Assembly: GCA_965215595.1 (NCBI GenBank)
Contig: CBDCDW010000005.1
Span: 235,316-299,315 of the forward strand
DNA from: an uncultured Candidatus Binatia bacterium
Lineage (GTDB): Bacteria > Desulfobacterota > Binatia > UBA9968 > CAXXLF01
Direction of reading: 5' to 3'
DNA length: 64,000 nt
Each line of letters opens with the position of its first letter. Positions within the stretch are counted from its first letter, which is position 1. Made by a program: the position numbers and the translations under genes. Under the pieces are notes generated by a model. It saw only the letters and a program-made list of their open reading frames with translations. It did no database searches and was not told the origin of the DNA. Shown in pieces: positions 3,897-58,757 of the stretch.

Positions 3897-4475
3897 ATGG
3901 CTTTAGTGAGAATTCCAGAGGGTCTTAATCATGCTCACTTTGATAAAATAAGAGAAATACAGGAAAACATTTTATCGGATATAAAAGGTGCAAGGCGGGT
4001 AGGTATTCGGCTTAATAAAACAGACACAACATATCCATCCCCTGTTTTTGTTGGAATTCTTGAGGATGCTACCATGAGGACCGATAGAGTAAGACGGGGT
4101 GGGGTGGATCCGGGACACGAACGGTTTAGGAATGAGGACTTCTCAGTGATTTACAATCAAACTGTTTCTGACCCTCAAGGCAAATATTGGGAGCGAGATT
4201 GGAATGAAGATAATGATTGTTATGAAAAAACCCTAGGGGGATTAAGGAAGCAAGGCAATAATGATAAGGGAGGCGTAAGATATCAAATCTTCATTGCAAT
4301 TAGAATTGCTGACGGGGCTTGTAAGCGTTCTATAGGGATTTTGGGAATAGGACTTGATGAAAAGCCGCAAGATATGAGGGACGTTGGGGCTGCAATGATA
4401 CGCTGGGCCCAAAGCAACTCTGAGCTCGTTCAACATATCACAAATACATACAAGCTTGGGGGGCCACTGTTTTAA
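3897..4475 (+). CDS. Hypothetical 192-aa cytoplasmic protein, translationally coupled to the downstream histidine kinase
   Basis: A good RBS (ggaaggag) precedes the ATG. The stop (4473-4475) lies 3 bp before the HK start. The region is AT-rich relative to its neighbours, no TM segment is present, and I recognise no motif. Confidence 0.5.
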   Translation: MALVRIPEGLNHAHFDKIREIQENILSDIKGARRVGIRLNKTDTTYPSPVFVGILEDATMRTDRVRRGGVDPGHERFRNEDFSVIYNQTVSDPQGKYWERDWNEDNDCYEKTLGGLRKQGNNDKGGVRYQIFIAIRIADGACKRSIGILGIGLDEKPQDMRDVGAAMIRWAQSNSELVQHITNTYKLGGPLF

Positions 4476-4478
4476 GCT

Positions 4479-6173
4479 ATGCCGCGACCGAAACGCAAAG
4501 CCGCGAACAAAAAAAAGGGCTCCTTGTTAAGAATCTCTCCTACCAACGAAAATTTACTCTCTCGGGCTACGGACCTCTCAGCCCTGCTCACACTGGTAGA
4601 AACGGCGACCCAATCGCTCGATACCGACAAGATCTTGAACGACACGCTGGATAAATCGTTGGAGGTCCTGCGTTTTGATGTGGGCTATATTCGAATTTTG
4701 GACCCGGAAACAAGAACTATGGTGGTCCGCGTGGGCAAAGGCTCAAGATTGCCTGAGATTCAGTACAGCACCGTTCCTATAGATTCGCCTCGTCGTCATT
4801 TAGCAAGCATTATCTTCAAAACTCGCGAGCCCTATATCTGCCTCGATGTTCGGAAAGATAAAAAGTTCAACAACCGAAGCATGGAGCGAGAGGGGGCCAT
4901 TTCAGCAGCTTTTATTCCTATTATGTCTAAGACTCGTATATTAGGAATCATAACGTTAGGAAGTCGCAAGTTTCATAAGTTTACCAAAAGAGAGATTAAT
5001 CTCCTCAAGGCCTTTGGCTCCCAGCTTGGCGCTGCGCTGAAAAATGCTCAACTCTACGACGAGGTGAATAATGGCAAGGCCTATATCGAAAATCTCGTGG
5101 AAAATGCGGGCGACGCTATCATCTCCACGGATCTGGAGGACCAGATCCTCACCTGGAACCGTGGCGCAGAGGTCATATTTGGCTACAGTAAAGAAGAGGT
5201 AGTAAGTAAAAATCTGACTATTCTTCTGCTTCCAAGCGATCATAGGGAACTTGAGGGGATGCGTAACAAAGTCAAGCTGACTGGTGTGATTCGTGACCTT
5301 GAGGTGCGACGAAAGAGAAAGGATGGGCGAATCATTAATGTGACCGTGGCAGTTTCACCCATTAAAGACAATAACGGCAATGTTATCGGGTTTCTCCGGT
5401 TAGCCAAAGACATCACTGAGAAAAAACGTTTTGAGGAAAGGCTCAAAGAACTCGATAGGATGAAATCGGACTTTGTTTCCAACGTCTCCCACGAATTAAG
5501 GACACCGCTTACCTCAATTAAAGGCTCGGTGGACAATATGCTTGACGGTATAACGGGCCCATTGAACGAAAAACAAAACCGCTATCTTACGCGCATCAAG
5601 TCGAATTCGGATCGTCTCTCGCGGCTCATCAATGACATCTTGGACCTCTCAAAATCCGAATCGGGGCGATTCGACCTTACGCCGACGGATCTTCCTCTTG
5701 TCACTCTAACGCAGGAGGTCGCAGAGAGCATTAGGCCAGTGGCAACGGAAAAGCTTATTAGTCTTGAGGTTGCCTCTCCTGATATTAATCTGACTGCTTG
5801 GGCAGATCTAGATAAGGTCACGCAGGTGCTGTTGAACCTCATTGGCAATGCAGTCAAGTTCACTCCGCCCTATGGCAAAGTAGGCGTAGCTATTCAAAGA
5901 AATGGGAATGAGTGGGTGCAGATATCCGTTACAGACACAGGACCAGGTATTCAGACGGACCAGGTAGATAAGATCTTCGATAAGTTTTACCAAGTTGCCC
6001 AAGCAACAAAACAAATAGCCAAAGGCACCGGACTGGGACTCGCTATTTGTAAAGCCATTGTGGAAATGCACGGGGGACGTATCTGGGTAGAAAGTAAATT
6101 AGGCAAAGGAAGCACCTTTTCCTTCACTCTACCTGCGCAGCAGCCGTTTAAGTTTGAACTACCTGCCAGATAG
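4479..6173 (+). CDS. Cytoplasmic sensor histidine kinase (GAF - PAS - HisKA - HATPase_c)
   Basis: A GAF-like N-terminal region is followed by a PAS block (ENLVENAGDAIISTDLEDQILTWNRGAEVIFGY), the H-box SHELRTPLTSIKGS, and N/G boxes (NLIGNAVKFT, DTGPGI, GTGLGLAICKAIVEMHGGRIWVES). No TM helices are present. Confidence 0.85.
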   Translation: MPRPKRKAANKKKGSLLRISPTNENLLSRATDLSALLTLVETATQSLDTDKILNDTLDKSLEVLRFDVGYIRILDPETRTMVVRVGKGSRLPEIQYSTVPIDSPRRHLASIIFKTREPYICLDVRKDKKFNNRSMEREGAISAAFIPIMSKTRILGIITLGSRKFHKFTKREINLLKAFGSQLGAALKNAQLYDEVNNGKAYIENLVENAGDAIISTDLEDQILTWNRGAEVIFGYSKEEVVSKNLTILLLPSDHRELEGMRNKVKLTGVIRDLEVRRKRKDGRIINVTVAVSPIKDNNGNVIGFLRLAKDITEKKRFEERLKELDRMKSDFVSNVSHELRTPLTSIKGSVDNMLDGITGPLNEKQNRYLTRIKSNSDRLSRLINDILDLSKSESGRFDLTPTDLPLVTLTQEVAESIRPVATEKLISLEVASPDINLTAWADLDKVTQVLLNLIGNAVKFTPPYGKVGVAIQRNGNEWVQISVTDTGPGIQTDQVDKIFDKFYQVAQATKQIAKGTGLGLAICKAIVEMHGGRIWVESKLGKGSTFSFTLPAQQPFKFELPAR

Positions 6174-6184
6174 TGAGGTGGGTT

Positions 6185-6553
6185 ATGGGGCTCAAAGTCC
6201 TTGTTGTGGATGATGAGGAAGACATTGTCGAGGTGATCAAGGATCGCCTGGAAGCCTATGGGTTCACGATTTCGACAGCGGGAACCGGTCTGCAGGCTTT
6301 GAAAAAGCTTTCCATGGAAAAATTTGACGGTATTTTCCTGGACATTAAGATGCCAGAGATGGGCGGCATGGAAGCCTTGGAGGAGATCCGCAAGAATGGA
6401 TTGACAATCCCTGTGATTATTCTCACCTCATCTTCCACTAAAGATGTACCCTTGGAGGCTATGGCCAAGGGAGCCGATGATTACCTCCTTAAGCCCTTCG
6501 AGTGGGAAGAGCTGAAGGCCAAAATCGAAAAGGTCTACAACATCTCCCTATAG
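6185..6553 (+). CDS. Single-domain response regulator (CheY-like receiver)
   Basis: KVLVVDDEEDIVEVIKDRLEAYGF...FLDIKMPEMGGMEAL...KPF is a REC domain with no output domain. The start overlaps the HK stop (GTG at 6173 or ATG at 6185). Confidence 0.75.
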   Translation: MGLKVLVVDDEEDIVEVIKDRLEAYGFTISTAGTGLQALKKLSMEKFDGIFLDIKMPEMGGMEALEEIRKNGLTIPVIILTSSSTKDVPLEAMAKGADDYLLKPFEWEELKAKIEKVYNISL

Positions 6554-6589
6554 CGATAGCCATGGAAGGTTTTACCCGGGACCATCCTA

Positions 6590-7915
6590 GTGGTCGATGA
6601 TGACCAGAATATCCAGGAGGTGATCAAAGACCGCCTGGAATCCCTGAATTGCCGGGTATTGCTAGCCTCCAATGGGAAAGAGTGCTTGGAAGTTCTCGAG
6701 CACCAGAGCCCGCAGATGGTCCTTCTTGACATCGAGATGCCCGGTGTCAACGGGCTCGAAGTTCTAAAAGAAATTCGTAAGAGAGAGTACGATGTGAGCG
6801 TGGTAATGATCACAGCTCACGGCACCATTGATCGTGCAGTGCAGGCGATCAAGGGAGGGGCCTATGATTTTATTCAGAAGCCTTTTGAGCCTGACCATAT
6901 TGCCTTAATTGTGGAGCGGACCCTGGAGAGGGAAAGGCTTAAAAGAGACGTAGAGATCTTCTCCGAAGAGATAGGCAAACGTTATAACCTGATTGTGGGT
7001 AAGAGTGCCAAGATGAACCGGGCAGTTGAATTGGCTAAGAAGTCGAGCGCAAGTCGGTCCACTGTGTTGCTTTTAGGAGAAAGTGGAACCGGCAAAGAGA
7101 TATTTGCTCGGGCGATCCACAATTGGAGTGAGCGTTATGGCAAGCCCTTTATTGCCATTAACTGCGTTGGCCTTTCACGGGAACTCTTGGAAAGCGAGCT
7201 TTTCGGCCATGAAAAAGGAGCTTTTACGGGGGCCCATCAGCTTAAAAAAGGCAAGATGGAACTGGCCCATGGTGGGACCATCTTTCTTGATGAAGTTGGC
7301 GATATTTCTCAAGAACTCCAAACCAAACTCCTCAGATTTCTCCAAGAGCGGGAATTTGAGCGGGTCGGAGGGACAAAATCTATCATTGTGGATGTGAGAA
7401 TCATAGCCGCCACGAATCGCGATCTGGATCGGGCGGTCAAAGAAAATAAATTCCGTGAGGATCTCTATTATCGCCTCAACGTCATTCCCATTGTTCTTCC
7501 TCCTTTAAGAGAACGAAGAGAAGACATTCCTACCCTGGCCTACTATTTTTTGCGGCGGTTTTCCTCGGAAACCAAGAAAAGCTTCACCGAGATAACCCTA
7601 GAAGCCTCCGAGAAACTCCAAGCCTATGACTGGCCGGGAAATGTCCGCGAGCTAGGAAATGTCATGGAGCGGGCCGTTGTTTTGGGCCAGGCTCCAAAAG
7701 TTCAACTGGAAGACCTGGCACCCAGTATCGCTTTCTCACAGCCCGTGAACCGCGAAGAAGACTATTCGTATCATGAGGCCACGGATAGCTACAAACGGCA
7801 GCTAATCATTCGGGCCCTAACACAGGCACAGGGAAATCGCGCCGCGGCTGCAAGGGCCCTCGGTCTTCAGCGGACCTATCTTTCCCGATTGATAAAAACT
7901 CTTCGTATTGGCTGA
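6590..7915 (+). CDS. Sigma-54-dependent response regulator (NtrC family: REC - AAA+ - Fis-type HTH)
   Basis: REC (VVDDDQNIQEVIKDRLE...LLDIEMP), Walker A GESGTGKE, a canonical GAFTGA (ESELFGHEKGAFTGA), an R-finger region, and a C-terminal HTH (NRAAAARALGLQRTYLSRLIK). The start is GTG. The REC domain is paralogous to that of the preceding CheY-like gene. Confidence 0.85.
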   Translation: MVDDDQNIQEVIKDRLESLNCRVLLASNGKECLEVLEHQSPQMVLLDIEMPGVNGLEVLKEIRKREYDVSVVMITAHGTIDRAVQAIKGGAYDFIQKPFEPDHIALIVERTLERERLKRDVEIFSEEIGKRYNLIVGKSAKMNRAVELAKKSSASRSTVLLLGESGTGKEIFARAIHNWSERYGKPFIAINCVGLSRELLESELFGHEKGAFTGAHQLKKGKMELAHGGTIFLDEVGDISQELQTKLLRFLQEREFERVGGTKSIIVDVRIIAATNRDLDRAVKENKFREDLYYRLNVIPIVLPPLRERREDIPTLAYYFLRRFSSETKKSFTEITLEASEKLQAYDWPGNVRELGNVMERAVVLGQAPKVQLEDLAPSIAFSQPVNREEDYSYHEATDSYKRQLIIRALTQAQGNRAAAARALGLQRTYLSRLIKTLRIG

Positions 7916-8014
7916 GTCATTTTGGATCGCTGACTCCGCTAAGACTTTCCATATCGCCGTCGAATCTCTCACCAAAGAGACTTTCCCTATGGGCTGAATC
8001 CTTTTCTTCACATG

Positions 8015-8034
8015 CCGTATCCACAAGGATACGG
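8015..8034 (+). promoter_or_regulatory. Perfect 8-4-8 palindrome ccgtatcc-acaa-ggatacgg, ~100 bp upstream of the sigma-54 promoter; candidate enhancer (UAS) for the adjacent NtrC-type activator
   Basis: Dyad symmetry is visible directly. The distance to the -24/-12 element is typical for bEBP enhancers. Confidence 0.35.
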
Positions 8035-8118
8035 GTCTCTCTATCGCTCCATCAGATGACTCAACCGATTTCCCTTTGATTCAGTAGCTTATCCAATTTT
8101 GTCGCTACTGCCGCTGAT

Positions 8119-8133
8119 TGGCACAGCCTTTGC
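8119..8133 (+). promoter_or_regulatory. Sigma-54 (RpoN) -24/-12 promoter TGGCAC-N5-TTGC, ~36 bp upstream of the cyclase start
   Basis: ttGGcacagcctttGCg matches the consensus YTGGCACG-N4-TTGCW, with the GG and GC doublets correctly spaced. It sits immediately downstream of a sigma-54 activator gene. Confidence 0.6.
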
Positions 8134-8169
8134 GCTACTGTTTAAACGTACCTTGAAGAAGAATATCAA

Positions 8170-9186
8170 ATGGGGGAAATGATGGCTGAAGAGATTCTGG
8201 TCCCAACCAAAGGTCTAAATGGCATTGAGGAAATCATCCCTCACCTCGAGCATATTGCCAATCCAGCAATGAGCGTCATTTTGCTGGTTCCCTACCGAAC
8301 GGAGCTTCTCCGCAGCCTTTTGCATCAGTGGATTCCAGCAGAGTCGAGGGAGGAAGATTTACCACAGGGTATAGAGACCACGGAAGGGCTCTCACTGGAG
8401 CCACAAAACAGGTTGGCTGATCAGAATAGCGCTCCCGCTCGTGAGAGTTTAATGAAATTTGACCCCCGTAACGTAAGCCTTTACTATCTTGGCTCCAATG
8501 GAGTAGAGCACGACGTTCCTAAAGGAAAGATGGCCATGGAGCTCATAGGACTCGAACGTAAGCTCACCGCCATCCTTAGCGCCGATGTGGTTGGCTATAG
8601 CCGCCTGATGGGCGAGGATGAAGCGGGCACAATCCATACCTTAACGGCCTACCGCGAAGTGATGACCACCCTTATCCAGCAACACCGTGGCAGAGTCGTG
8701 GACGCACCGGGTGACAATCTCTTGGCGGAGTTTGCCAGCGCAGTGGGCGCGGTGGAGAGCGCGCTCGCTATTCAGCAAGAGTTGAAGACGAGGAACGCCG
8801 AACTGCCTGCTGACCGCCAGATGGTCTATCGTATCGGAATTAACGTTGGCGAGGTCGTGGTCGAGGGCGAGCGGATTTATGGTGACGGTGTCAATATTGC
8901 CTCCCGTTTGGAGAGCTTGGCCGAGAGCGGAGGCATCTGCCTCTCGGGGAATGCTTTTGAACTGGTTCGTGATAAGCTGGCGGTCGGCTTTAAAAACCTC
9001 GGTGATCGAAGGGTCAAGAATATCAACAGACCGATTTCTGCCTATAGCGTGCTCACCGATCCTGACTTCGTTGGAAAGGTGAAAAACGCGCCCGCGAAGG
9101 GGTTTGCTCGTTGGAAATGGCCAGCCGTCACCACCACCGTCATGTTCATTCTTATCGCAGCAAGCATTGGAGTGTGGTGGCCCTAA
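8170..9186 (+). CDS. Class III adenylate/guanylate cyclase with an unknown ~120-aa N-terminal region and a C-terminal single TM anchor
   Basis: Cyclase homology domain: LERKLTAILSADVVGYSRLMGEDEAGTI...VDAPGDNLLAEF...YRIGINVGEVVVEGERIYGDGVNIASRL. A C-terminal hydrophobic helix (WPAVTTTVMFILIAASIGVWWP) closes the protein. The N-terminal 120 aa have no recognisable motif. Confidence 0.8.
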   Translation: MGEMMAEEILVPTKGLNGIEEIIPHLEHIANPAMSVILLVPYRTELLRSLLHQWIPAESREEDLPQGIETTEGLSLEPQNRLADQNSAPARESLMKFDPRNVSLYYLGSNGVEHDVPKGKMAMELIGLERKLTAILSADVVGYSRLMGEDEAGTIHTLTAYREVMTTLIQQHRGRVVDAPGDNLLAEFASAVGAVESALAIQQELKTRNAELPADRQMVYRIGINVGEVVVEGERIYGDGVNIASRLESLAESGGICLSGNAFELVRDKLAVGFKNLGDRRVKNINRPISAYSVLTDPDFVGKVKNAPAKGFARWKWPAVTTTVMFILIAASIGVWWP

Positions 9187-9430: not shown

Positions 9431-11446
9431 CTAGTGCGTCCGCTCCCCGACGAAGTCCGCCAACTCACGGAGTACGTGCGCATCGTTACCGAAGGCGATG
9501 ATCGCCTCTTTCGCCTCGTGGATGAGCTGCTTGGTTCGCTCGCGGGAGTTTTCAACGCCGAGGACCGAAGCGAATGTCGCTTTGCGGTGGCGCGCGTCGC
9601 TGCCTTGCGGCTTACCGAGCTGCTCGGTGGAGGAGGTGACGTCGAGGATGTCATCGACGATCTGAAACGCGAGGCCGACACGCTCACCGTAAATCGCTAG
9701 CTGCTCGATCTGCTCGTCCGTTGCACCGCCCGCAATACCACCCGCCACAATAGACGTGCGCAGGAGCGCTGCCGTCTTCATTCGGTGCAAGCGTATGAGG
9801 GCGTCGGTGTCGAGCTGTTGTCCGTCGGAGAGAATGTCGATGACCTGCCCACCTACCATTCCGTGGGCTCCAACGGCAGACGAAATCTCATGAACGAGAC
9901 GAATGGCGCGAGAGGCTCCGATACGCTCTGTGAGCGTCGGATCTGCCAGTAACTCAAAGGCGCGGGTCAGCAACGCATCCCCAACCAAAATCGCCATCGC
10001 TTCGCCATAGACCTTGTGTGTCGTGGGCTTGCCCCGGCGCAAATCGTCGTTGTCCAAGGCCGGCAGGTCGTCGTGCACCAGCGAGTAGGTGTGGATGAGC
10101 TCGACTGCTAGCGCTGGCATTATCGCGTCGCTCGCCGCGGCTCCCACCGACTCCGCAGCCGCCAGTGCCAGGATCGGGCGAAGTCGCTTTCCCCCTGCGA
10201 ACACCGGGTAGCGGACCGCGTCCGCAAGTTGGTCGGGTGTCGACCCATTCGGGAGCGATCCGTCTAGAGCAATTTCAACAAGCTCCCGCCTGGAAGCCAT
10301 ATAGCCGCTCAAAACATCGGCCGACGTCCCAGCCACTAGCGTGCTCCGGGGTTGCGGCGAGATGGTCACGGGTCCTAGGCTCAGGCGGCAGAAACTGGTG
10401 CGCAGTGCTTCGTCGTCCTCCACATGCTCGACGCAATCCTGGATCAGCTTTTCGACCTCTCCATGGGAGATCTTCACCGGCTCGCCGGGGATGAGCTGGG
10501 CGTCGTTTCTCCGGGCATAGGCAAGGGTGCGCACCGCCATCCACAACGGTAAGAGACAGAAAAGGCGTATGTCTCGTTCGTTCGGCGGGATCGCCAAGCA
10601 ATAGGTGAATGCATGCTCGAACCCGCGCTGAGCACGCTTGAATAGCGGCGCCAGCGCCGTGTGAGCGCGCTCTCGCGCCTCGGGTTGCAACAGCTCGGCT
10701 ACCTCCAGGCCAGCATCCTGGCAGACCGTGCGCGGGACATAGCAAACGCCGCGCTCCCAGTCGTTAGTGATATCCTTGAGGATGTTGGTCATCTGCAGGC
10801 CGACGCCAAACTCCTCCGCGTTGGTGCGCAGGGCATGAGTGCGCGGGGCATCGAGATCGCAGGTATCCGTGAATAGGTCGGTGAGCATGTGCGCGACCGT
10901 CCCTGCGACGAAGTAGCAGTACCGTTCGAGATCCGCAAGTGTTGTCAACGCCACGATGCCATCCTCGCCAGTTGGGCGCCGACTGTATATGGCCATCCCG
11001 CGCGCCATCTCGCATACACCCCGTCGTATCGCTCGCTGCGAGGAGTCGTTGAGCTCCGCGAAGACGCCGAGAACGCGCGGCAGGTTTTTCACTAGCCGAC
11101 GCTCCGCGCTCGCCGGTCTTTCACCGTTGTCAGGGAACCGGCTCGCGAAGTCCGAAGCCGAAGCATCCTGCTCCAAACATTCGAGGAAAGATAAATAGAG
11201 GCCGTCCCGCTCTGCCAGTGTGAGGTTTGACTCATCCTCGATCGTATCGGCAATCCGGCATAGCAAGTAGCCGCAGGTGACCGCACGCTCCAGCGGATCG
11301 CGCAACATCGCGATTGGCAAACTGAAGGTCCGCGAGACCTCCTTCAGCGACTGCTGACAGAAACGCCAATCGCTGGAATTCATAGCGCCATCGGTTAGCA
11401 TAACTTTGTCACAGAATGTAACCCGTTTATTCGGTTTGGAAACCAC
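9431..11446 (-). CDS. Bifunctional fusion: squalene/phytoene synthase-like domain (N) + trans-polyprenyl diphosphate synthase (FPP/GGPP synthase) domain (C)
   Basis: N-terminal half: RIADTIEDE and LQMTNILKDITNDWERGVCYVP, the two Asp-rich SQS/PSY motifs, plus YCYFVAGTVAHM. C-terminal half: GKRLRP, the first DDxxD-type motif LVHDDLPALDNDDLRRGKPTTH and the second FQIVDDILD. The gene is high-GC. Confidence 0.75.
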   Translation of the reverse strand: MVSKPNKRVTFCDKVMLTDGAMNSSDWRFCQQSLKEVSRTFSLPIAMLRDPLERAVTCGYLLCRIADTIEDESNLTLAERDGLYLSFLECLEQDASASDFASRFPDNGERPASAERRLVKNLPRVLGVFAELNDSSQRAIRRGVCEMARGMAIYSRRPTGEDGIVALTTLADLERYCYFVAGTVAHMLTDLFTDTCDLDAPRTHALRTNAEEFGVGLQMTNILKDITNDWERGVCYVPRTVCQDAGLEVAELLQPEARERAHTALAPLFKRAQRGFEHAFTYCLAIPPNERDIRLFCLLPLWMAVRTLAYARRNDAQLIPGEPVKISHGEVEKLIQDCVEHVEDDEALRTSFCRLSLGPVTISPQPRSTLVAGTSADVLSGYMASRRELVEIALDGSLPNGSTPDQLADAVRYPVFAGGKRLRPILALAAAESVGAAASDAIMPALAVELIHTYSLVHDDLPALDNDDLRRGKPTTHKVYGEAMAILVGDALLTRAFELLADPTLTERIGASRAIRLVHEISSAVGAHGMVGGQVIDILSDGQQLDTDALIRLHRMKTAALLRTSIVAGGIAGGATDEQIEQLAIYGERVGLAFQIVDDILDVTSSTEQLGKPQGSDARHRKATFASVLGVENSRERTKQLIHEAKEAIIAFGNDAHVLRELADFVGERTH

Positions 11447-15829: not shown

Positions 15830-18800
15830 TCATGCTGACAGTACGTTTTTATGACGTAGCGCCCGCTCAAGCGCGGGTTTCATCTTCATCTCACGGAACT
15901 CGCTGATGGCGAAGTCCAGGTGCTCTCGCGCCTGAGCTTTTTCCTCTGATGTCCCCTGGAGAAGTAACTCGGCGAGTTGAAGCCGAGTGAGGGCGATCTC
16001 GGGACGATATTGGATGGACGTGGCCCAGGCGAGCGCACGCTCATACTCCGCTTGCGCGTCCTCGCGATCCCCCAGCAGCGCCGCGGCCCCACCAAGCTGC
16101 CGCGCGACATTGAAGACTACGAGGTCGTGTAGCCCGATGGCTACGAGCCCCTGGAGCTGCTCCCTGGCGAACGTTGCGGTTTCTCTGTCGCCGACCACCA
16201 CGGCGACTTCTAAGAGGGTAGCCAGGTGGAAGGTACCTGCCTCCCCCGCTGCCGCCTGCGGTCGCAAATTGGCCAAGCTCCTCTGCGCCCCCATCAAGGC
16301 TTCCGCGCTCCGACCTTGGTGGGCGTCTTTAAGGATTTGCACCACCGCAAATGCCCCTCTTGCGGCTAAAACTCTTTCCCTGATGGGGCTTGCATCCTCG
16401 TGTCCGAGATAAAGCAGCGGCTGGAAACTCAACCATTCAGCCGAAAGCTCTCCAGCTCTCGGGATTCCCAGCTCGATCGCCTGGCTTTTGAGCCGTGCAG
16501 CGACCTCGACGCTACTTTCTAGTTCCCCGCTCAGGGTGGCTCGAACCGCTTCGAGCTGGAGCGGCCAGAGTAGAGCAACCACGTCACGAGTATGATTGGC
16601 CAGCTCGCTCAGCTCCCGCCAGACCTGCTCTGTTCGAGCTCGGTCCCCGGCTGCTAAGAATAGCGTCTGAGCCCGCTGCAACACCAGAGCCAGCGTGGTC
16701 GTTCGAACCCGGTGACGGGGCCGGTCGGTGATCTCGTATGCCATGTGCCGCTGCTCCTGCTGATACTGCGGAGGCCAACCCATAAACATCATCGAGGCGG
16801 CCGCCCGGAAAAGCACCTCCGGATCGTCGAGCCGCCGCGCCAGCTCCAGAGCCCGGAGTACCAGTGCATTTGCAACGCCGTGCTTCCCTCGAGGACGGCG
16901 CACTGACGCTAAGATACAGTCGGCGTAAACGCGGGAGCGTGAGTTGGGTGCCGCGTACCGGTCCAAGCTCTCTGCCCAGTTCAGATAGATATCTGTTAAG
17001 ACCATGTAGGGCCCACCGTGACGGTGGAGCGCATCGACCGCCAGCTCGCAAGCCCGGCTAGCCCGAATGTCGTCGCCGAGGAATTCAGCCAGCCGTAGCG
17101 CCTCCGTGGCAACCTGTTCAGCTGCCCTTTGGGGCTCGCCGGCAGGACCAATGGCCTCCCCTAGCGCCAGCAAGAGGTCGCAACGCTTCGCCTTGTTATC
17201 CGGGTCGAGGACTTCCTGAGTGCGGAGTGCTTGCTCAAGGCGTCGCGCCGCCTCGCCATAGGCAAAGACCTGCATGGCTTGTTTCGCCGCCATCTCCGAG
17301 TAACTCAGAGCCTTTTCCAAGTCGCCGCGCTCCGTGCTCTGGATGAAATGCTCCGTCAGCTCCGCCGCGTGCTCGTCCAATCGCTGACTATAGACCTCCT
17401 CCAGGGTCTTGCCCACTTGTTGATGGAGGCGAATCCGCCGTGGGACAAAGATCTCTTCGTAGAGAGTTTGGCGAAAAAACGCATGGGTGAAACGAAATCC
17501 CACCGTCCCCACAGCCTGGCGTTGCTCGATCACAGCTCGCCCAGTCGCCTCCTCCAATGCCCCGTACAGCTCCTCTTCCGGCAAACCGGCCACTTGTTCG
17601 AGAACGTCCAGGCGGAACTCCCGCCCGATGACCGCCGCAACAGACAGAATCTGGTTGGCCTTCTCGGTGAGTCGACTCAGGCGCTTGCCGACCACATCTC
17701 GCAGACCCTCGGGAATCCCCGCTTCCGAGTCGGCGAGCAAGTACCGCCCGCTCTCACGGACGACAATCCCTTCCTCCACCAGGTAGCGTAGCACCTCATG
17801 GACGAACAAAGGATTGCCCTCCGTCTGGCGGTGGATCGCCTCTGCCCCACTCCAGGGCACGTCCTGCCCACGGACGATGGACATCATCCGCTGCACTTCC
17901 TCAACCGTGAGGCCGCGCGGTGATACGCGCAGGAAGCTCCCCGCCCGCCGCAACTCGGCGAGGGCACTGGACAGCGGATGGGCGCGATCTACCTCGACGT
18001 CTCGGTAGGTGCCAACGATGAGCAGATGGGTCCCCTGGAGATTGTGGGAGATGTGGAGGAGGAGGTCGAGGGTGCCACGGTCGGCATCGTGCAAATCCTC
18101 GAGAACAACCAGCAACGGTTGAACCATCGACGCATTGCGTAGGAATTCACTCACAGCTTGCAAAAGTCGCCAGCGGTCGTCCTCAGGATCGCCCGGCGGT
18201 CGCACTTCGACCCGCAAACGGTCTTGGATCTCCGAGACTAGCCGCGCCACGTCGGCGGCCCCGCTGCCCAGATCCCGGCGCAGGTCATCTGACTCTTGCG
18301 TGAGGACGTACGAACGCATTGCCTCCACGAAGGGCAGATAGGGCAAAGATAGTGAGCCTTCCTCATAGCAGTGTCCAACGAGAGCCATGCCACCCCGTTG
18401 CGTGACGTAGGTGACGAGCTGCTCGCAGAGCGAAGTCTTGCCGATGCCAGGTTCGCCGACGACCATCGCCAGCGATCCCTGATAGGACAGGGTAGCATCA
18501 AAGGCCCCCTGGAGCTGACGTAGTTCCCGCTCGCGCCCGACGAACGTACGGCCGTAGAGCGAGTCGTTCACGCCTAACCTTGCGGTCTCCTTCCCCGCGA
18601 CGGAGAGCGGAGTCGGCTCAACAGTACCGGCATTGAGCTTCTCTTCCGGTAGCGTGACTTTTTCCGGCAGCTCCACTGTTGGCGGCTGCCGCCTTGGAAC
18701 TTCGACTTTCTTCTGTGGCTTGGCCAATGCCGTCCCCTGATCCAAAACCGCCCGATAGGCACGAATTGGCTCCGCAATGTTCTTGACCTGCTGCGGGCCA

Positions 18801-19249
18801 AGGTCCTCAAAGTTAACAGATACCTTTCCCTTGATATGCTCAAATACCGTCCCCGATATGCATATGCCACCAGGTTCCGCTAATCCCTCCATCCGTGCTG
18901 CGATGTTCACCCCATCACCGTAAATCCGCTCCCCTTCCACGATCACATCACCAAGGTTAATCCCTATACGAAACTCCATGCTGCGGTTCTCTGGCAAATT
19001 GGCGTTCTCTGCCCTGAGCGTAGATTGGACTACGGCGGCACATTTCACCGCATCTACCACGCTGCCAAACTCCGCCAACAGGTTATCTCCAGGGGAGTCC
19101 ACTACTCTGCCCCGATTGCGCGGGATGAGAAACGTCATCACTTGTCGGTGAGAGGTCAATGTGCGAATGGTCGCCTCCTCATCCTCCCCCATTAGTCGAC
19201 TGTAACCTTCGACATCCGCACTAAGAATGGCAGTGAGTTTGCGTTCCAT
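15830..19249 (-). CDS. Large tripartite signalling protein: N-terminal class III nucleotidyl cyclase domain - central P-loop NTPase (AAA/NB-ARC-like, GEPGIGKTSL) - C-terminal TPR-like helical repeats; no HTH
   Basis: N-terminus MERKLTAILSADVEGYSRLMGEDEEATI...SPGDNLLAEF...FRIGINLGDVIVEGERIYGDGVNIAARM is paralogous to the cyclase at 8170. Walker A VGEPGIGKTSLCEQL and a Walker B-like LLVVLEDLHDAD follow. About 600 aa of Ala/Leu-rich repeats make up the C-terminal half. The gene is high-GC. Confidence 0.8.
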   Translation of the reverse strand: MERKLTAILSADVEGYSRLMGEDEEATIRTLTSHRQVMTFLIPRNRGRVVDSPGDNLLAEFGSVVDAVKCAAVVQSTLRAENANLPENRSMEFRIGINLGDVIVEGERIYGDGVNIAARMEGLAEPGGICISGTVFEHIKGKVSVNFEDLGPQQVKNIAEPIRAYRAVLDQGTALAKPQKKVEVPRRQPPTVELPEKVTLPEEKLNAGTVEPTPLSVAGKETARLGVNDSLYGRTFVGRERELRQLQGAFDATLSYQGSLAMVVGEPGIGKTSLCEQLVTYVTQRGGMALVGHCYEEGSLSLPYLPFVEAMRSYVLTQESDDLRRDLGSGAADVARLVSEIQDRLRVEVRPPGDPEDDRWRLLQAVSEFLRNASMVQPLLVVLEDLHDADRGTLDLLLHISHNLQGTHLLIVGTYRDVEVDRAHPLSSALAELRRAGSFLRVSPRGLTVEEVQRMMSIVRGQDVPWSGAEAIHRQTEGNPLFVHEVLRYLVEEGIVVRESGRYLLADSEAGIPEGLRDVVGKRLSRLTEKANQILSVAAVIGREFRLDVLEQVAGLPEEELYGALEEATGRAVIEQRQAVGTVGFRFTHAFFRQTLYEEIFVPRRIRLHQQVGKTLEEVYSQRLDEHAAELTEHFIQSTERGDLEKALSYSEMAAKQAMQVFAYGEAARRLEQALRTQEVLDPDNKAKRCDLLLALGEAIGPAGEPQRAAEQVATEALRLAEFLGDDIRASRACELAVDALHRHGGPYMVLTDIYLNWAESLDRYAAPNSRSRVYADCILASVRRPRGKHGVANALVLRALELARRLDDPEVLFRAAASMMFMGWPPQYQQEQRHMAYEITDRPRHRVRTTTLALVLQRAQTLFLAAGDRARTEQVWRELSELANHTRDVVALLWPLQLEAVRATLSGELESSVEVAARLKSQAIELGIPRAGELSAEWLSFQPLLYLGHEDASPIRERVLAARGAFAVVQILKDAHQGRSAEALMGAQRSLANLRPQAAAGEAGTFHLATLLEVAVVVGDRETATFAREQLQGLVAIGLHDLVVFNVARQLGGAAALLGDREDAQAEYERALAWATSIQYRPEIALTRLQLAELLLQGTSEEKAQAREHLDFAISEFREMKMKPALERALRHKNVLSA

Positions 19250-19555
19250 ATTTGGGACTCAATCGGACTGAAACTAAGAAAACAAAATTACGGAGAAACA
19301 GGATTTCTCAACGCAAAAAGTAAGTCAGTTTTTCCGTTAAGTAGAAATGATGATATGATTTGTCTTTTCAGCATAGCTTTATCCTCCTCTATATTTGTTG
19401 ATCAGCGGAGATCTAAACGCTAGTTATTTATCCTTTGCCCGCTCTCCCAAAGCGTCGTTGATCACTCAAACGTATGGCTTAAGCTCCCTGCCATCCGGGT
19501 CAAATTTTTAAGCTGGCTATTCTGCAACCGATATCCAGCACTTGTCAAGGTTCGG

Positions 19556-19810
19556 ATGGAGCCGCCGCTGCTTGCGCGCACAGTAGCCTGCTACTTTTGG
19601 TCCAGAGACTATCGGTGTACCTTGGCGGGAGATCCTATTCCACCTTAAGATACAATTCAACGCCGCTTTAATTGAGTCTTACGGCCGTTGGAAAAGAAAA
19701 GGCGGCCCGATATGGACCGCCTTTTCTTTAGGGAGTAAGGATTGTGTCTGGATGGCTTTAGCTTACAAGATTACTGATGTTCTTTTGTTCGGCAACAACT
19801 CCAATGCCCG
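19556..19810. repeat. Tandem duplication, first copy of the ~250-bp overlap (unit length 947 bp; second partial unit at 20503-20750)
   Basis: ggagccgccgctgcttgcgcgcaca...ggcggcccgatatggaccgccttttcttta...atggctttagcttacaagattactgatgt is repeated 947 bp downstream with ~95% identity. It includes the start of the transposase ORF. Confidence 0.85.
19625..19690. repeat. Short dispersed repeat, copy C (again at 20572-20637 inside the tandem duplication)
   Basis: gggagatcctattccaccttaagatacaattcaacgccgctttaattgagtcttac shares the aagat...ttNaacgNcgctttaattgag core. Confidence 0.45.
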
Positions 19811-20507
19811 GGATCTGGATAAAGAGGTTAAGTTTTACCATAGACGTCCCCTGCAGTACCGCTATCAGTTCTTTGATGGGGTGGTGTTAAAGAGCAAGGG
19901 GGTTACAGAAAAAGATATTACTTTGTGCCTTCGGGATCCTGATGGGAAGGGGATCGATTTCTATGCGGCCCCAACTGAATCTGAAGCCTGCTCGTTGTTA
20001 AGGGACCTGTATCTAGAGGGGGGGTGTTGTGAGCTGATTGTGACCGATGGGGGAACGGGGCTGCATGGAGCCTTACAGATTGTCTATCCTAAGATCCTCG
20101 CCCAACGCTGCTGGGCCCATAAGACAAGAAACGTGTTGGACAAGGTAAAAAGGGCCGATCAACCAGCGGTCAAAAAAGCTCTAAATCGTATCAGTCATGC
20201 CCCTAATTATAGAAAAGCTACGGAAGCTTACTGGCGGTTTGGTTCACGCTGGAGGAAGGCTTATCCAAGGGCTGTGGCCTGTTTGGAAAAGGATCTCGAT
20301 CAAACTTCTTTCAGATCAAGCGGCCTGAAGCCGCTTGGAACCACCAACCTCATAGAAAGATCGTTCCGGGAAGTCAGGCGCAGGACTCGCCCTATGGGGG
20401 TGATGGCAAATACCCAAAGCATACAAAGAATCGTTTTTTCTGTCTTTCATCACTTGAACCAAAATTGGAGTGAGAATGCCCCTAAGAAATTTACACACAA
20501 GTCTTGA
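19752..20507 (+). CDS. IS256 (Mutator)-family transposase, C-terminal ~250 aa only (N-terminal ~120-150 aa missing)
   Basis: QRCWAHKTRNVLDKVKRADQPAVKKAL is the IS256-family C-terminal signature. FFDGVVLKSKG and LIVTDGGTGL match the DDE-region blocks of IS256 transposases. The ORF is too short for an intact enzyme. Confidence 0.6.
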   Translation: MALAYKITDVLLFGNNSNARDLDKEVKFYHRRPLQYRYQFFDGVVLKSKGVTEKDITLCLRDPDGKGIDFYAAPTESEACSLLRDLYLEGGCCELIVTDGGTGLHGALQIVYPKILAQRCWAHKTRNVLDKVKRADQPAVKKALNRISHAPNYRKATEAYWRFGSRWRKAYPRAVACLEKDLDQTSFRSSGLKPLGTTNLIERSFREVRRRTRPMGVMANTQSIQRIVFSVFHHLNQNWSENAPKKFTHKS

Positions 20508-20806: not shown

Positions 20807-21223
20807 ATGGGAAGGGGAAAGGATCTCATCATGGCAGAGAGAAGAAGGTTTACAGCGAATTTCAAGCGGCAGGTAGTGGAGGAACTCCTCAGTGAGAGCT
20901 CCACGTTGGCCCAACTGAGCCGCCGCTACGACATCTCCTCAGGCTCCACGTTGGCCCAACTGAGCCGCCGCTACGACATCTCCTCAGGACTTATTCGACA
21001 TTGGACGAAGCGCTACGAACAAGGGGGCCTGGTGGAGGGCCCCTCTCTGCCAGAGAAGGAACTTCGAGCGCGCAATGCGGAGTTGGAGCGGATGGTGGGC
21101 AGACTCACCATGGAGAATGATCTTTTAAAAAAAGCCGTAGAGTACACACTGCGGCGGAGAAAAGAGAATTCGTCACCCATCACGGCCAAGAGTTTGGCAG
21201 CATCCATAGGGGGTGTGAAGTGA
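20807..21223 (+). CDS. IS3-family transposase OrfA (HTH + leucine zipper)
   Basis: See the element entry. It contains a 45-bp in-frame tandem duplication (SSTLAQLSRRYDISSG twice). Confidence 0.7.
   Translation: MGRGKDLIMAERRRFTANFKRQVVEELLSESSTLAQLSRRYDISSGSTLAQLSRRYDISSGLIRHWTKRYEQGGLVEGPSLPEKELRARNAELERMVGRLTMENDLLKKAVEYTLRRRKENSSPITAKSLAASIGGVK
20899..20988. repeat. Perfect 45-bp tandem duplication inside IS3 orfA
   Basis: ctccacgttggcccaactgagccgccgctacgacatctcctcagg occurs twice, back to back. Confidence 0.85.
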
Positions 21224-22038
21224 TGGGGATAGCGCGCAGCACTTTTTATTACCGAACCCGGGAGCCTTCTATGCTCCACGAGATTGAGGAGGCGGACTTA
21301 CGGGACCGGATTGAGCAGGTAGTGGAGGAGTATCTGCGTTACGGCTACCGGCGAGTCACCCATCATCTGAGGCGCGAGGGCTTTAAGGTTAATCACAAGC
21401 GGGTGTCGAGAATCATGCGGGAGGAATCATTGCAATGCCAGGTCAAGCGGCACTGGGTGAAGACCACTGACAGTGATCATCCCTACCGGGTCTATCCGAA
21501 CCTCCTTAAGGGACTAAGGGCCACAAGACCTAACCAGGCATGGGTGGCCGATATCACCTACATCCGGATCCTCACGGGGTTTTTGTACTTGGCGGTGATC
21601 TTGGATCTGTTCTCACGTAAGGTTATTGGGTGGGCGCTTTCTAAATCGATCGATACCGAGATGACTTTAATGGCTCTGCGGATGGCTTTAGTGGAGAGAA
21701 GGCCGCCCTGGGGTTGTATCCATCATTCAGATCGCGGAGTGCAGTACGCCGCCCATGCTTATGTGGAGGAGTTGCGGGCAGCGGGGATCTTAATCAGCAT
21801 GGCCCGCAAGGGCAATCCCTATGACAATGCGACAGCGGAGAGCTTCATGAAGACGCTCAAGCATGAAGAAGTCTACCTGTGGGAGTACAGGACGGCGCAG
21901 GATGTGAAGCAAAGGGTTCCTTATTTTCTGGAGGAAGTCTATAACCAGAAGCGGTTGCACTCGGCTTTGGGGTACTGTCCACCGAATGAGTTTGAGCAGG
22001 CCTGGCAGATGAAAGCCGAGGTGGTGTGTGAGGCCTGA
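21220..22038 (+). CDS. IS3-family transposase OrfB (DDE integrase core)
   Basis: rve-domain motifs: WVADITYI, HSDRGVQY, NPYDNATAESFMKTLKHE. Confidence 0.75.
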   Translation: MMGIARSTFYYRTREPSMLHEIEEADLRDRIEQVVEEYLRYGYRRVTHHLRREGFKVNHKRVSRIMREESLQCQVKRHWVKTTDSDHPYRVYPNLLKGLRATRPNQAWVADITYIRILTGFLYLAVILDLFSRKVIGWALSKSIDTEMTLMALRMALVERRPPWGCIHHSDRGVQYAAHAYVEELRAAGILISMARKGNPYDNATAESFMKTLKHEEVYLWEYRTAQDVKQRVPYFLEEVYNQKRLHSALGYCPPNEFEQAWQMKAEVVCEA

Positions 22039-29492: not shown

Positions 29493-31108
29493 TCAATAAT
29501 TTCAGTGCGTTAACAGAACTCTCTGGTTATAATGCTCTCAGTTATTCTCAATTATTATAGGGAGCAAAGCCATGATGGGTCATCAGCCACCCTCTCAGCC
29601 TGCACTATTCTACACAGGATTTAATTTGGAAAAACGGATTCGTGCGGACCACATGTTGCGCAAAGTAGCACGGATGGTGGATTTTGATTTTGTGTACCAA
29701 GAAGTCAAGGATCGATATGGATACAACGGCAACGTATCGGTTGCACCGCCAATGATAATAAAGCTGATGATGCTTTTGGTGCTCTACAACGTTCGTAGCG
29801 AGCGAGAGTTGATGGCAACGTTGCCGGAGCGGCTAGACTGGTTGTGGTTTTTGGGATTGGAGTTGGATTCGGAGATACCGCACCATAGCGTGCTGAGCAA
29901 GGCGAGGAGGCGTTGGGGTGTAGAGTTGTTTCGATCCTTTTTCGAGCGAGTCGTGTGGCAGTGTGTGGAGAGCGGGTTAGTGGACGGGAGTAAGCTTTTT
30001 TGCGACTCCAGTTTGATTGAAGCGGATGCTTCACGCAACTCGGTTATAGACACCCAGGGGCTTAGACGTTACCTGAGCCCAGCATACAAGGAGTTGGAGG
30101 CACGATTAGAGGAGCGGGAAGAGGCAAGAGAGGACAACCATGAGGATCCACCCGAGAACCCTCCCCGGCGTAACGTTGTCAACCAGCGCTACGTGTCGGC
30201 AACCGATCCAGATGCCTCGGTGGTACGCAAGGGAAAGAAGGGGGACTCTAAGCTGCGTTATCAGACCCACCGTGGGATCGACGGGGCGTATGGGGTAATT
30301 ACCGCGACGGTGGTTGGCCCTGGGGACGAGAACGAAGCACATCGCATGACAGAGCTTCTCCAGGATCATCAGGCCCATACCCAACGAAGTGCCCAGGTGG
30401 TGGTAGCCGATAGCAAGTACGGGACAACAGCTAATTTCTTAGATTGCTACGACCGTGGGATATTGGCACACATTCCGGTGTTGAAACAGACCCAGGATAA
30501 GCAGGAGCGTCGGAGCAAGATATTTCCTGAAAGTATGTTTGTTTATGACCCAGAAACCGACACTTATACATGTCCTGCCGGGCAACCGCTTAGGCGGCGT
30601 AAGCACTGGGTGGAGCGCAAGGCGTTTGAGTACGTGACGAGCCGCGGGGTGTGCCAGCAGTGTACCTTGCGGCTTCAATGCACTCGTTCTCAAAGTGCGG
30701 GGCGAACCATCAAACGCCATGAGCGCCAGGAGATATTGGATAGCGTGCGTATGCGAGCACAGAGCCCATGGGCAAGAAGAGATATCAAGGTCCGTCAGCA
30801 TTTCATGGAACGATCGTTTGCTCAAGGGAGACGATATGGACTGAAACGAGCGCGGTGGCGTGGTCGTTGGCGGGTGCAGATTCAAGATTACTTGATAGCG
30901 ATTGTGCAGAACATCGAGCTATTGATTAATCATGCACGGCCAAAACCAAGAGCGGTTTTGGCTGCAGCAACGAAGGTGGCCATTCGCTTTGCGACCCACC
31001 ATCCCACGGCCTTGCAGCAAGCCGTGGTGGTTTGAGCAAACAAACACCGCACGTTATAGCTCGGTTGGATCTATTGCGCTATTTAACCGAGGTTTGGGCA
31101 ACAGCCCG
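29477..31108 (+). mobile_element. IS1182/IS5-family insertion sequence, copy 1 (1632 bp; 16-bp terminal IRs cgggctgttgcccaaa / tttgggcaacagcccg)
   Basis: Perfect terminal inverted repeats. It carries a single transposase ORF at 29572..31035 and is identical in length and nearly identical in sequence to the inverted copy at 33289-34920. Confidence 0.8.
29572..31035 (+). CDS. IS1182/IS5-family DDE transposase (DUF772 N-terminal domain + DDE_Tnp_1)
   Basis: PALFYTGFNLEKRIRADHMLRKVARMVDFDFVYQEV...YGYNGNVSVAPPMIIKLMMLLVLYNVRSEREL is the characteristic IS5-group N-terminus. A C-terminal Cys-rich region follows (CPAGQPL...CQQCTLRLQC). Confidence 0.8.
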   Translation: MMGHQPPSQPALFYTGFNLEKRIRADHMLRKVARMVDFDFVYQEVKDRYGYNGNVSVAPPMIIKLMMLLVLYNVRSERELMATLPERLDWLWFLGLELDSEIPHHSVLSKARRRWGVELFRSFFERVVWQCVESGLVDGSKLFCDSSLIEADASRNSVIDTQGLRRYLSPAYKELEARLEEREEAREDNHEDPPENPPRRNVVNQRYVSATDPDASVVRKGKKGDSKLRYQTHRGIDGAYGVITATVVGPGDENEAHRMTELLQDHQAHTQRSAQVVVADSKYGTTANFLDCYDRGILAHIPVLKQTQDKQERRSKIFPESMFVYDPETDTYTCPAGQPLRRRKHWVERKAFEYVTSRGVCQQCTLRLQCTRSQSAGRTIKRHERQEILDSVRMRAQSPWARRDIKVRQHFMERSFAQGRRYGLKRARWRGRWRVQIQDYLIAIVQNIELLINHARPKPRAVLAAATKVAIRFATHHPTALQQAVVV

Positions 31109-31411
31109 TTGAATCTTGGCATAAGCCTTTCATGGCCGACTCAATTGAAGGAGCAATGAGCGTGCCGATCCAACACGACTACCCGGACTTAAGCCAGGTG
31201 CTGAATTGGTGAGGGAAATTTTTAGCAGATAAATTTAACGGAGCTTGCCGGGAAAGGCGTAAGTGTAGCTTCCTTGCTACACCCCTGTAACAAAAATGCT
31301 CCAGCAGAATTCGGAATCTTTAGGCCCTATTTCCACACCAGATGCTATTAATCGAGAATTAATTGCATCTCATGCACGACTCAAAGTACTGAGTGCCGTG
31401 AACACTCTGGG

Positions 31412-33169: not shown

Positions 33170-33288
33170 CCACCCATGCTACTATAAGGTGTCCCCGTGG
33201 CAAGACCACGGGGAATTACAAGTTCAATTCGAAGTGGTCGTGCCATTAATCGTTTCTACCGTGAAGAGAGACCATATTCAATAATCAA

Positions 33289-52667: not shown

Positions 52668-52704
52668 AGATTCCTCTCCCTAATCCTCGTTATGCGCGCC
52701 GAGT

Positions 52705-53814: not shown

Positions 53815-53896
53815 GTTCATGCCTCCTAACCATAGATTAATAACCGATGATATTCGAATTCGGGTTTCCATCTTCAATTGGATCTAAATTTCATCA

Positions 53897-57256: not shown

Positions 57257-57297
57257 AAAGAACCTGAACACTAGCCATTCAAAAGAGGAGCATTTGA

Positions 57298-58740: not shown

Positions 58741-58757
58741 TATGAAGGGAGTTAATC

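Follow-up and report, generated by a model that had tools for sequence, protein, structure and literature searches.

Several described families of STAND ATPases resemble the protein reported here. Escherichia coli MalT, the LAL regulators and archaeal PH0952 are STAND ATPases with TPR or SUPR sensors; their HTH effector is absent from the present protein, the output of which is enzymatic. The PknK type, comprising PknK of M. tuberculosis and a kinase-AAA_16-TPR family of Chloroflexota/Dehalococcoidia, has a NOD-arm-TPR body that is homologous to ours from end to end, and it likewise carries an N-terminal enzyme effector on a flexible linker and has no DNA-binding domain. However, the effector of the PknK type is a Hanks kinase, whereas here it is a class III nucleotide cyclase; some PknK-like relatives carry an extra, different cyclase at the C-terminus (25% identical; P0012). 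The mycobacterial proteins of the Rv0386/Rv1358/Rv2488c type also combine an N-terminal class III cyclase, an AAA_16-type ATPase and TPRs, and have non-canonical base-specifying residues. Castro et al. reportedly described Gln/Asn at these positions of Rv0386 in 2005. In contrast to this type, the present protein has no C-terminal LuxR/GerE HTH, its cyclase has an Asp/Arg pair, and its body is not a close relative of theirs, the nearest relatives being kinase-headed. The same domain order without an HTH, cyclase-AAA_16-TPR_MalT, is found in proteins of other bacteria (L034, 1061 aa, Desulfobacteraceae; L037, 1155 aa) and in one of the same genome (L083, 907 aa), which are about 25% identical over aa 2-732, have Q/D or Q/R pairs in their cyclases and in some cases an N-terminal zinc ribbon; they are of independent origins. 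Since HTH-less proteins of this kind are also encoded by unrelated bacteria and at other loci of this genome, the layout itself is already known, and no paper characterising an HTH-less cyclase-STAND protein was found in the literature searched. The best NCBIfam match, over the NOD and the following region (aa 235-685), is the TOMM system kinase/cyclase fusion TIGR03903; it scores 182 bits against a threshold of 705.75, the protein lacks a kinase domain, and the 64-kb window (the whole stretch of DNA that was analysed, 64,000 nucleotides) contains no genes for TOMM biosynthesis.

The gene at 15830-19249 is a real, intact gene encoding a cyclase-headed STAND ATPase, the repeat sensor of which is MalT-like. 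The reading that we prefer, and consider fairly probable, is that of a soluble MalT/PknK-type STAND ATPase, with an AAA_16 NOD, a MalT-like TPR sensor and a class III cyclase as output, that was born when a kinase head was replaced with the leader and 187 codons of a same-genome cyclase. Its features are as follows.

15830..19249, minus strand: whole gene for the cyclase-STAND-TPR protein, 1139 aa, with the stop codon at 15830-15832 (ORF list; 99-100% identical proteins in other assemblies)
18740..19249, minus strand: class III nucleotide cyclase catalytic domain, aa 1-170 (Pfam PF00211; 3MR7; Ma1120 alignment; residue states in homologues)
18689..19302, minus strand: part inherited from a family of stand-alone cyclase genes, made up of codons 1-187 and the 53 bp of leader before them (nucleotide and protein identity)
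18560..18688, minus strand: junction and flexible linker, aa 188-230 (BLASTP breakpoints; pLDDT <50 and no secondary structure)
17915..18559, minus strand: NOD nucleotide-binding domain, aa 231-445, AAA_16 (Pfam E 1e-29; motifs; invariant columns; beta-alpha-beta core in model 2; matches to STAND NOD folds)
18434-18457, minus strand: Walker A, aa 265-272 (motif)
18092-18115, minus strand: Walker B, aa 379-386 (motif)
17450..17914, minus strand: predicted helical and winged-helix parts of the NOD, aa 446-600; the wings are beta-hairpins, at aa 496-505 and 574-587 (model 2 secondary structure; Foldseek against PH0952, Apaf-1 and the MalT NOD)
15833..17449, minus strand: arm and MalT-like superhelical TPR sensor, aa 601-1139
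16130..16969, minus strand: variable sensor core, aa 761-1040, candidate ligand-specificity region (column identity and entropy)

In the ORF list, the encoded protein begins with MERKLTAILSADVEGYSRLMGEDE. At least five further assemblies contain it with 99-100% identity, which excludes an assembly artefact. Pfam assigns Guanylate_cyc to aa 7-157 (E 1.8e-10, above the cut-off) and AAA_16 to aa 235-412 (E 1.1e-29); the sole TPR family match is a weak one to TPR_12 at aa 1047-1108, and at E <= 0.1 no HTH family, GerE included, is found. Together with structure prediction, these assignments bear out the sequence-only reading, which had described a cyclase, a P-loop NTPase and helical repeats with no DNA-binding domain; what was read into this layout is borne out in part. 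It had also put the repeats at about 600 aa: the region is indeed all-helical, with pLDDT >90, but spans about 540 aa (aa 600-1139).

The central domain has a P-loop with a Walker A motif of the form GxxxxGK[ST] (GEPGIGKT, aa 265-272) and a Walker B motif of the form hhhhD[DE] (LLVVLED, within aa 379-386), the columns of both being invariant among 100 homologues. Its fold was judged from model 2, an AlphaFold prediction made from the body-only alignment A2 (pLDDT 88.8); in the model based on alignment A1 the cyclase part is poor because A1 is misaligned there. With model 2, Foldseek retrieves 6MFV (4e-11), Apaf-1 (5.5e-8) and the MalT NOD 8BOB (6.8e-7), and further CED-4, NLRC4 and Sr35, so that the predicted nucleotide-binding, helical and winged-helix domains resemble those of solved STAND proteins. 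The layout is tripartite, the repeat sensor being at the C-terminus and the effector at the opposite end. The predicted structure places the centre of the protein firmly among the STAND ATPases (PH0952, Apaf-1, MalT NOD), as had been proposed from the letters. Sequence profiles alone do not establish a link to MalT. Pfam AAA_16 is common to this protein and E. coli MalT, but hhalign of the NOD profile A3 with MalT matches the P-loop alone (probability 12%), hmmsearch of the PDB with a NOD-only profile returns generic P-loop proteins and nothing else, and the A1 profile returns kinases only. Since sequence comparison with MalT gives the P-loop only, the MalT-type assignment rests on the predicted structure and on a relative of 55% identity (P0088) that has LAL architecture.

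A TPR solenoid had been anticipated for the tail, and structure prediction agrees: the closest fold is the sensor domain of MalT. The NOD and sensor as a whole are closest to regulators of the MalT/PH0952 type and to PknK-like kinases. Conservation is uneven along the body, the mean identity being 0.73 in the NOD, 0.57 in the C-terminal cap and 0.30-0.37 at aa 761-1040, where entropy is about 2.3 bits.

The N-terminal domain scores 41 bits against PF00211 (cut-off 21.9) and matches 3MR7 in the PDB (E 1e-38). Alignment to Ma1120 and 3MR7 shows that the two metal-binding aspartates (D12 and D55) and the transition-state residues (N115 and R119) of class III cyclases are all there, and this DDNR core is kept in 149 of about 167 related domains. 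The base-specifying pair, at the positions of K101 and D157 in Ma1120, is D51/R108. Class III adenylyl cyclases have Lys and Asp at these positions, and guanylyl cyclases have Glu at the first and Cys, Ser, Thr, His, Ala or Gly at the second (PMC4215837). Asp/Arg corresponds to neither, although the acidic first residue is guanylyl cyclase-like. As Asp/Arg stands in place of Lys/Asp, the product is probably a cyclic nucleotide other than cAMP, and the hydrogen-bond pattern of Asp51 and Arg108 would suit guanine (or uracil) and not adenine. The pair is shared by 110 of the about 167 domains, taken from the best 150 of 7,127 representative clusters (E <= 1e-30). It is conceivable, and we put it forward only tentatively, that Asp/Arg marks a very large clade of class III cyclases making a non-cAMP nucleotide (cGMP or a pyrimidine cNMP), which would here be harnessed to a STAND-gated, ligand-triggered and oligomerisation-driven second-messenger system of Chloroflexota-like bacteria. 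A second cyclase of this type lies in the window, as had been noticed from the sequence; it is a true paralogue, sharing 64% of its residues over 170 aa (E 2e-70), and a tblastn search of the window gives no further copies.

8551..9060, plus strand: paralogous D/R-type cyclase domain inside ORF 8170-9186 (64% identity, tblastn, Pfam)

The cyclase and the body have different ancestries. From position -53 to codon 187 the gene matches stand-alone cyclase genes of this genome, L083 and L084, at 82% of nucleotides, and this similarity ends abruptly; at the protein level, aa 1-187/191 are 83-89% identical to the stand-alone family, and the start codon is the one used in all stand-alone homologues. 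Similarity to kinase-STAND relatives restarts at about aa 204 by BLASTP breakpoints. The closest relatives of the body are Ser/Thr-kinase-STAND-TPR proteins of Chloroflexota (PknK-like), which are 50-63% identical to it over aa 204/231-1139 and reach 78-83% in the NOD. With the junction mapped between codons 187 and 204, in frame and with the natural pre-NOD linker kept, the gene is a chimera in which a kinase effector was swapped for a cyclase. The possibility that an N-terminal kinase was lost when the adjacent IS inserted was considered and rejected, in view of the start codon common to stand-alone homologues and of the 5′ leader, which shares its ancestry with the cyclase parent. Six kinase heads used as tblastn queries find no kinase remnant in the window, including near 19250-19750. 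The composition also changes: the body has 60-66% GC and the flanks have 45-48%, with a GC3 of 0.66-0.80 in the body and of 0.52-0.65 in the cyclase part. This was not accepted as evidence that the body was acquired horizontally; because other genes of the window reach a GC3 of 0.72-0.74, the step fits a chimera and is no proof of transfer.

A chimera demonstrated in this way could also be young and selectively neutral, a product of IS-rich rearrangement that, translated or not, is decaying with no maintained function. Transposase genes lie directly upstream, the IS content varies among strains, the exact fusion is seen only in one 90% cluster of 7 sequences, and in one assembly a frameshift splits the gene into parts of 359 and 765 aa. 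Between the window gene and its copy L001 there are 2 synonymous and 7 nonsynonymous differences, giving a within-lineage pN/pS of about 1.2 from 9 changes, too few to inform. On the other hand, at least five assemblies have the 3.4-kb ORF unbroken, all catalytic and nucleotide-binding motifs of the protein are intact, its junction preserves both frame and linker, and the cyclase module has a dN/dS of 0.12 at a dS of about 0.73. Moreover, the 18% nucleotide divergence from the nearest donor-type gene of the same genome indicates that the fusion or the donor lineage is not brand new, and the same cyclase type has been joined independently to other AAA_16 NODs (P0294, P0127), which suggests that the pairing is useful. 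We consider neutral decay unlikely.

An anti-phage immune sensor, either Avs-like or Pycsar-like, in which the solenoid would detect some protein of the phage and the cyclase would supply an alarm nucleotide to an effector encoded elsewhere, seems to us improbable. The likeness to antiviral Avs proteins had been raised in the sequence-only reading, and the tripartite STAND architecture, the variability in the middle of the sensor, the many family paralogues per genome (at least nine loci in one Dehalococcoidia MAG), the IS-rich region and the intermixing of defence and non-defence STAND clades in phylogeny (PMC13581612) would all agree with it. However, PADLOC on the protein gives no match to Avs or to any other STAND defence model: the top matches are mad8 (1.3e-4, P-loop region only) and PycC, a weak match in favour, whose E-values of 5e-4 to 2e-2 fall far short of that of the generic cyclase 3MR7. 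The relationship of the NOD and sensor to MalT/PH0952-type regulators and PknK-like kinases also points elsewhere. In the ORF list the gene is monocistronic, with a divergent neighbour on one side and, on the other, a convergent gene 150 bp past its 3′ end; it has no flanking operon partner and no adjoining effector or defence gene. The neighbours are AlkB-like, amidohydrolase, transport, aromatic-catabolism and IS genes, and by Pfam the 64-kb window contains no defence genes and no cNMP-effector or cNMP_binding receptor genes.

That the protein is a conventional LuxR/LAL-type transcription factor that lost its HTH by truncation is effectively refuted and retains hardly any probability: mycobacterial Rv0386 and Rv2488c do consist of cyclase, ATPase, TPR and LuxR HTH (preprint 10.1101/2024.03.06.583649) and the relative P0088 does end in a GerE domain, but relatives align to residue 1134 of 1139, which is the natural end in the HTH-less P0002, P0004 and P0007, the C-terminal cap is conserved, the HTH of P0088 is an extra ~80 aa beyond the shared end, and the convergent gene leaves no room for HTH remnants past 15830. 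Relatives had been expected usually to end in such a domain; its absence here stands, and 119 of 120 relatives are without it.

For the MalT/PknK-type STAND ATPase with a cyclase output, the following course of events may be proposed. The parent of the body would have been a Chloroflexota-type kinase-STAND-TPR gene, the Hanks-type kinase head of which was replaced in frame. At rest, the protein would be a monomer with a closed, ADP-bound NOD that is kept shut by the arm and the sensor. Binding of a ligand, most likely in the variable solenoid middle (aa 761-1040), would lift this autoinhibition, ADP would be exchanged for ATP and the NODs would assemble head to tail into multimers. The linker, disordered and about 60 residues long, could then let adjacent cyclase domains pair into the obligate dimer that forms the active sites, and this pairing would release a burst of cyclic nucleotide. 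Such induced proximity follows the same logic as would switch on the kinase heads of the relatives.

As the cyclase-STAND-TPR architecture is established, the finding is a modest one: as a signalling protein this is of an ordinary kind, although its origin is unusually clear. It provides a clean natural experiment in STAND modularity, in which a whole head has been exchanged, the junction is mapped and both parental families are extant. The swap of a kinase for a cyclase supports the view that STAND outputs require induced proximity only, and the kinase-headed and cyclase-headed proteins, with bodies about 60-80% identical, form a matched pair for testing it. The cyclase, for its part, belongs to a huge clade with residues that fit neither adenylyl nor guanylyl cyclases. 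Upstream of the gene lies one candidate regulatory element.

19519..19548, minus strand: TTGACA-18-CAGAAT, resembling a sigma-70 promoter and lying some 270 bp 5′ of the ATG (similarity to the consensus only)

The ORF at 15830-19249 (-) is real and encodes a product of 1139 aa (N-terminus MERKLTAILSADVEGYSRLMGEDE), in which Pfam recognizes a class III cyclase domain (PF00211, aa 7-157, E 1.8e-10), an AAA_16 domain (aa 235-412, E 1.1e-29) and, towards the C-terminus, only a weak TPR_12 match; it recognizes no HTH family. Several other assemblies, among them contigs of 6.17 Mb, 2.19 Mb and 308 kb, encode the protein with 99-100% identity. The cyclase-STAND-TPR layout is already known, and the 1139-aa protein adds a member to it.

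Judged from its sequence, the gene is a chimera of a stand-alone cyclase head and a kinase-STAND body. The cyclase module (aa 1-187/191) shares 83-89% identity with stand-alone cyclases of ~381-389 aa, an abundant family whose member P0351 is encoded in the same genome. DNA identity of 82% to the stand-alone cyclase genes starts 53 bp before the ATG and breaks off sharply at codon 187. From ~aa 204 onwards the protein is homologous to the kinase-STAND family (the homologue P0346, 78% over 204-651), leaving only ~12 junction residues without a parental match; no kinase remnant was found in the window. The effector-swap origin of the gene is well resolved. P0012-type relatives also carry a cyclase, which is unrelated to the head swap because it is C-terminal and only 25% identical. 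The same cyclase type as the head has been fused independently to other AAA_16 nucleotide-binding oligomerisation domains (NODs) in P0294 and P0127, with different linkers and Walker A variants; usually it is paired with simple TPR arrays that lack an NTPase. A 230-aa protein, P0131 (related loci L084, at 4001-4907, L085 and L086), looks like a stand-alone cyclase of the ~388-aa type that was truncated or frameshifted, and it is followed by an overlapping 89-aa ORF; it adjoins Mu-transposase and IS21-type genes.

The homology search recorded >8000 matches, and the closest relatives of aa 204/231-1139 are >100 Ser/Thr-kinase-AAA_16-TPR proteins of Chloroflexota/Dehalococcoidia/SAR202 (50-63% identity), whose kinase heads are PknB-like. 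The body alignment reaches residue 1134 of 1139, which is where the body naturally ends in HTH-less relatives, and a LuxR domain, with ~80 extra residues, occurs in one of 120 relatives among the matches listed, which rules out a truncated LuxR regulator. Cyclase-AAA_16-TPR_MalT proteins without an HTH are also found in unrelated bacteria (loci L034, 1061 aa, and L037, 1155 aa), and the 6.17 Mb genome itself codes for another cyclase-AAA_16-TPR protein, of 907 aa. Therefore the absence of the HTH, regarded as unusual in the sequence-only reading, is no anomaly, HTH-less proteins being the rule among the relatives listed. The 907-aa protein (L083 8949-9167, and on past the locus end; L082 likewise) consists of a zinc-ribbon, cyclase, AAA_16 and TPR and is unrelated to the 1139-aa protein; its gene sits a few kb from that of P0351.

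The assignment of the centre as a STAND NTPase, already proposed from the sequence, is supported. Walker A (GEPGIGKT, aa 265-272) and Walker B (LLVVLED, aa 379-385) are both invariant in 100 homologues. The NOD was poorly supported in a first AlphaFold model, for which MAFFT had mis-paired the N-terminal third of the query with the kinase domains of relatives, and its fold was read from a second model, of aa 197-1139, with the alignment in the correct register (pLDDT 88.8, pTM 0.82). In a Foldseek search of the PDB, the top match of this model is the STAND-TPR crystal structure of PH0952 (6MFV, E 4e-11); next come Apaf-1, SAMD9, the E. coli MalT NOD (8BOB, E 6.8e-7), CED-4, NLRC4 and plant NLR resistosomes. 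A MalT link of the NOD was not demonstrable from sequence alone; P0088, which is 55% identical, has exactly the same body plus a C-terminal GerE HTH, a layout that is the LAL/MalT architecture. Walker motifs, structural matches and the P0088 architecture therefore all argue against a non-STAND centre.

The active sites of class III cyclases form on dimerisation. STAND proteins rest in an ADP-bound state with a closed NOD, autoinhibited by arm and sensor, and are activated when an inducer binds, ATP is exchanged in and the proteins multimerise head to tail (PMC4381067, PMC6468293). Because the body would multimerise and the cyclase needs to dimerise, the most economical model is that a ligand would trigger oligomerisation, by which the linker-tethered cyclase domains would meet and cyclic-nucleotide synthesis would be switched on. 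Along the body, identity to the query is highest in the NOD (0.73), lowest in the central solenoid (0.30-0.37, aa 761-1040) and 0.57 in the C-terminal cap; this low conservation between conserved NOD and cap suggests that paralogues probably differ in ligand. For the cyclase module, dN/dS against same-genome paralogues is 0.12 (dS ~0.73). Comparison within the lineage gives only 9 differences (2 synonymous and 7 nonsynonymous). On a 42.8-kb ENA contig, a frameshift near aa 350 breaks the fusion gene into products of 359 aa and 765 aa (P0244 and P0245), perhaps a genuine pseudogene allele, perhaps a sequencing error. These data therefore do not demonstrate recent constraint.

What would the cyclase make? 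Alignment to the class III references Ma1120 and 3MR7 places the metal-binding aspartates (D12, D55) and the transition-state residues (N115, R119) as expected, and the base-specifying positions are D51 and R108. These are Lys/Asp in adenylyl cyclases and Glu plus Cys, Ser, Thr, His, Ala or Gly in guanylyl cyclases (PMC4215837). Among the 122 nearest homologues, Asp is kept in 117 and Arg in 112; of 68 cyclase domains taken from related loci, 55 have the pair and none has Lys/Asp, and the pair recurs in 110 of ~167 domains from the best 150 representative clusters of the 7,127 in the cyclase family at E <= 1e-30. With the acceptor first and the donor second, the adenine-reading pair is reversed, a pattern that would suit guanine or uracil. 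The cyclases at 18740-19249 (-) and 8551-9060 (+), together with the proteins P0121-P0553, are assigned to a very large D/R clade. Related domains also carry N/Q, D/Q, Q/R and Q/D pairs, the DDNR catalytic core being intact throughout. Tandem arrays of 3-5 cyclase-TPR genes (~630-750 aa each) with the N/Q pair are found in a 'proteobacterium' MAG (L057 5995-12140 and L063 5953-12642).

The second cyclase of the window, which had been taken for a close paralogue, is a true one (64% identity over 170 aa, E 2e-70), and no further cyclase copies were found in the window. It is the last of a head-to-tail trio spanning 4479-9186:

4479-6173 (+), histidine kinase, GAF-PAS-HisKA-HATPase
6590-7915 (+), sigma-54 response regulator
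8170-9186 (+), D/R-type cyclase

The GAF domain of the histidine kinase could be a cyclic-nucleotide receptor. The cyclase has a 127-aa N-terminal extension without a Pfam match and a hydrophobic C-terminal tail, WKWPAVTTTVMFILIAASIGVWWP, which looks like a C-terminal membrane anchor, a topology unusual for the family.

An antiviral role, suggested earlier by likeness to Avs proteins, finds no backing: Pfam detected no defence-like genes in the 64-kb window, and for the protein itself PADLOC gave only weak generic matches. No PF00027 cNMP-binding protein was found in the window. The gene is monocistronic: 150 bp downstream lies a convergent AlkB-like gene, and the upstream neighbour is a divergent fragment of a Mutator-family transposase; the rest of the window is occupied by aromatic catabolism, transporters, two sigma-54 activators and many IS elements, including the following:

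37381-38937, second GAF-sigma-54 activator
~29504-31112 (+) and ~33284-34893 (-), inverted IS copies with DDE transposase, 1462 of 1464 nt identical across the ORF

Identity of the two IS copies reaches 68 and 77 bp past the ORF, and since they flank a segment of ~2.2 kb holding an IS200-like ORF (31882-32592), the whole may be a composite transposon. Just upstream of the fusion gene, at 20807-22038 (+) and 19752-20507 (+), an IS3-family orfA/orfB pair adjoins the truncated Mutator-family transposase; the orfA contains an internal duplication, with STLAQLSRRYDISSG occurring twice, and the near-identical strain contig L001 has a different IS content here. Four paralogous UbiD-family decarboxylases are grouped at 51258-60206 with genes for solute-binding proteins and oxidoreductases, and together with HpaB, dienelactone hydrolase, Rieske oxygenase, extradiol dioxygenase and luciferase-like monooxygenase genes elsewhere in the window they look like an aromatic-catabolism island, which would fit a SAR202 or Dehalococcoidia-like host. 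A single 671-aa ORF at 9431-11446 (-) is a fusion of squalene/phytoene synthase (SQS_PSY) and polyprenyl synthetase domains.
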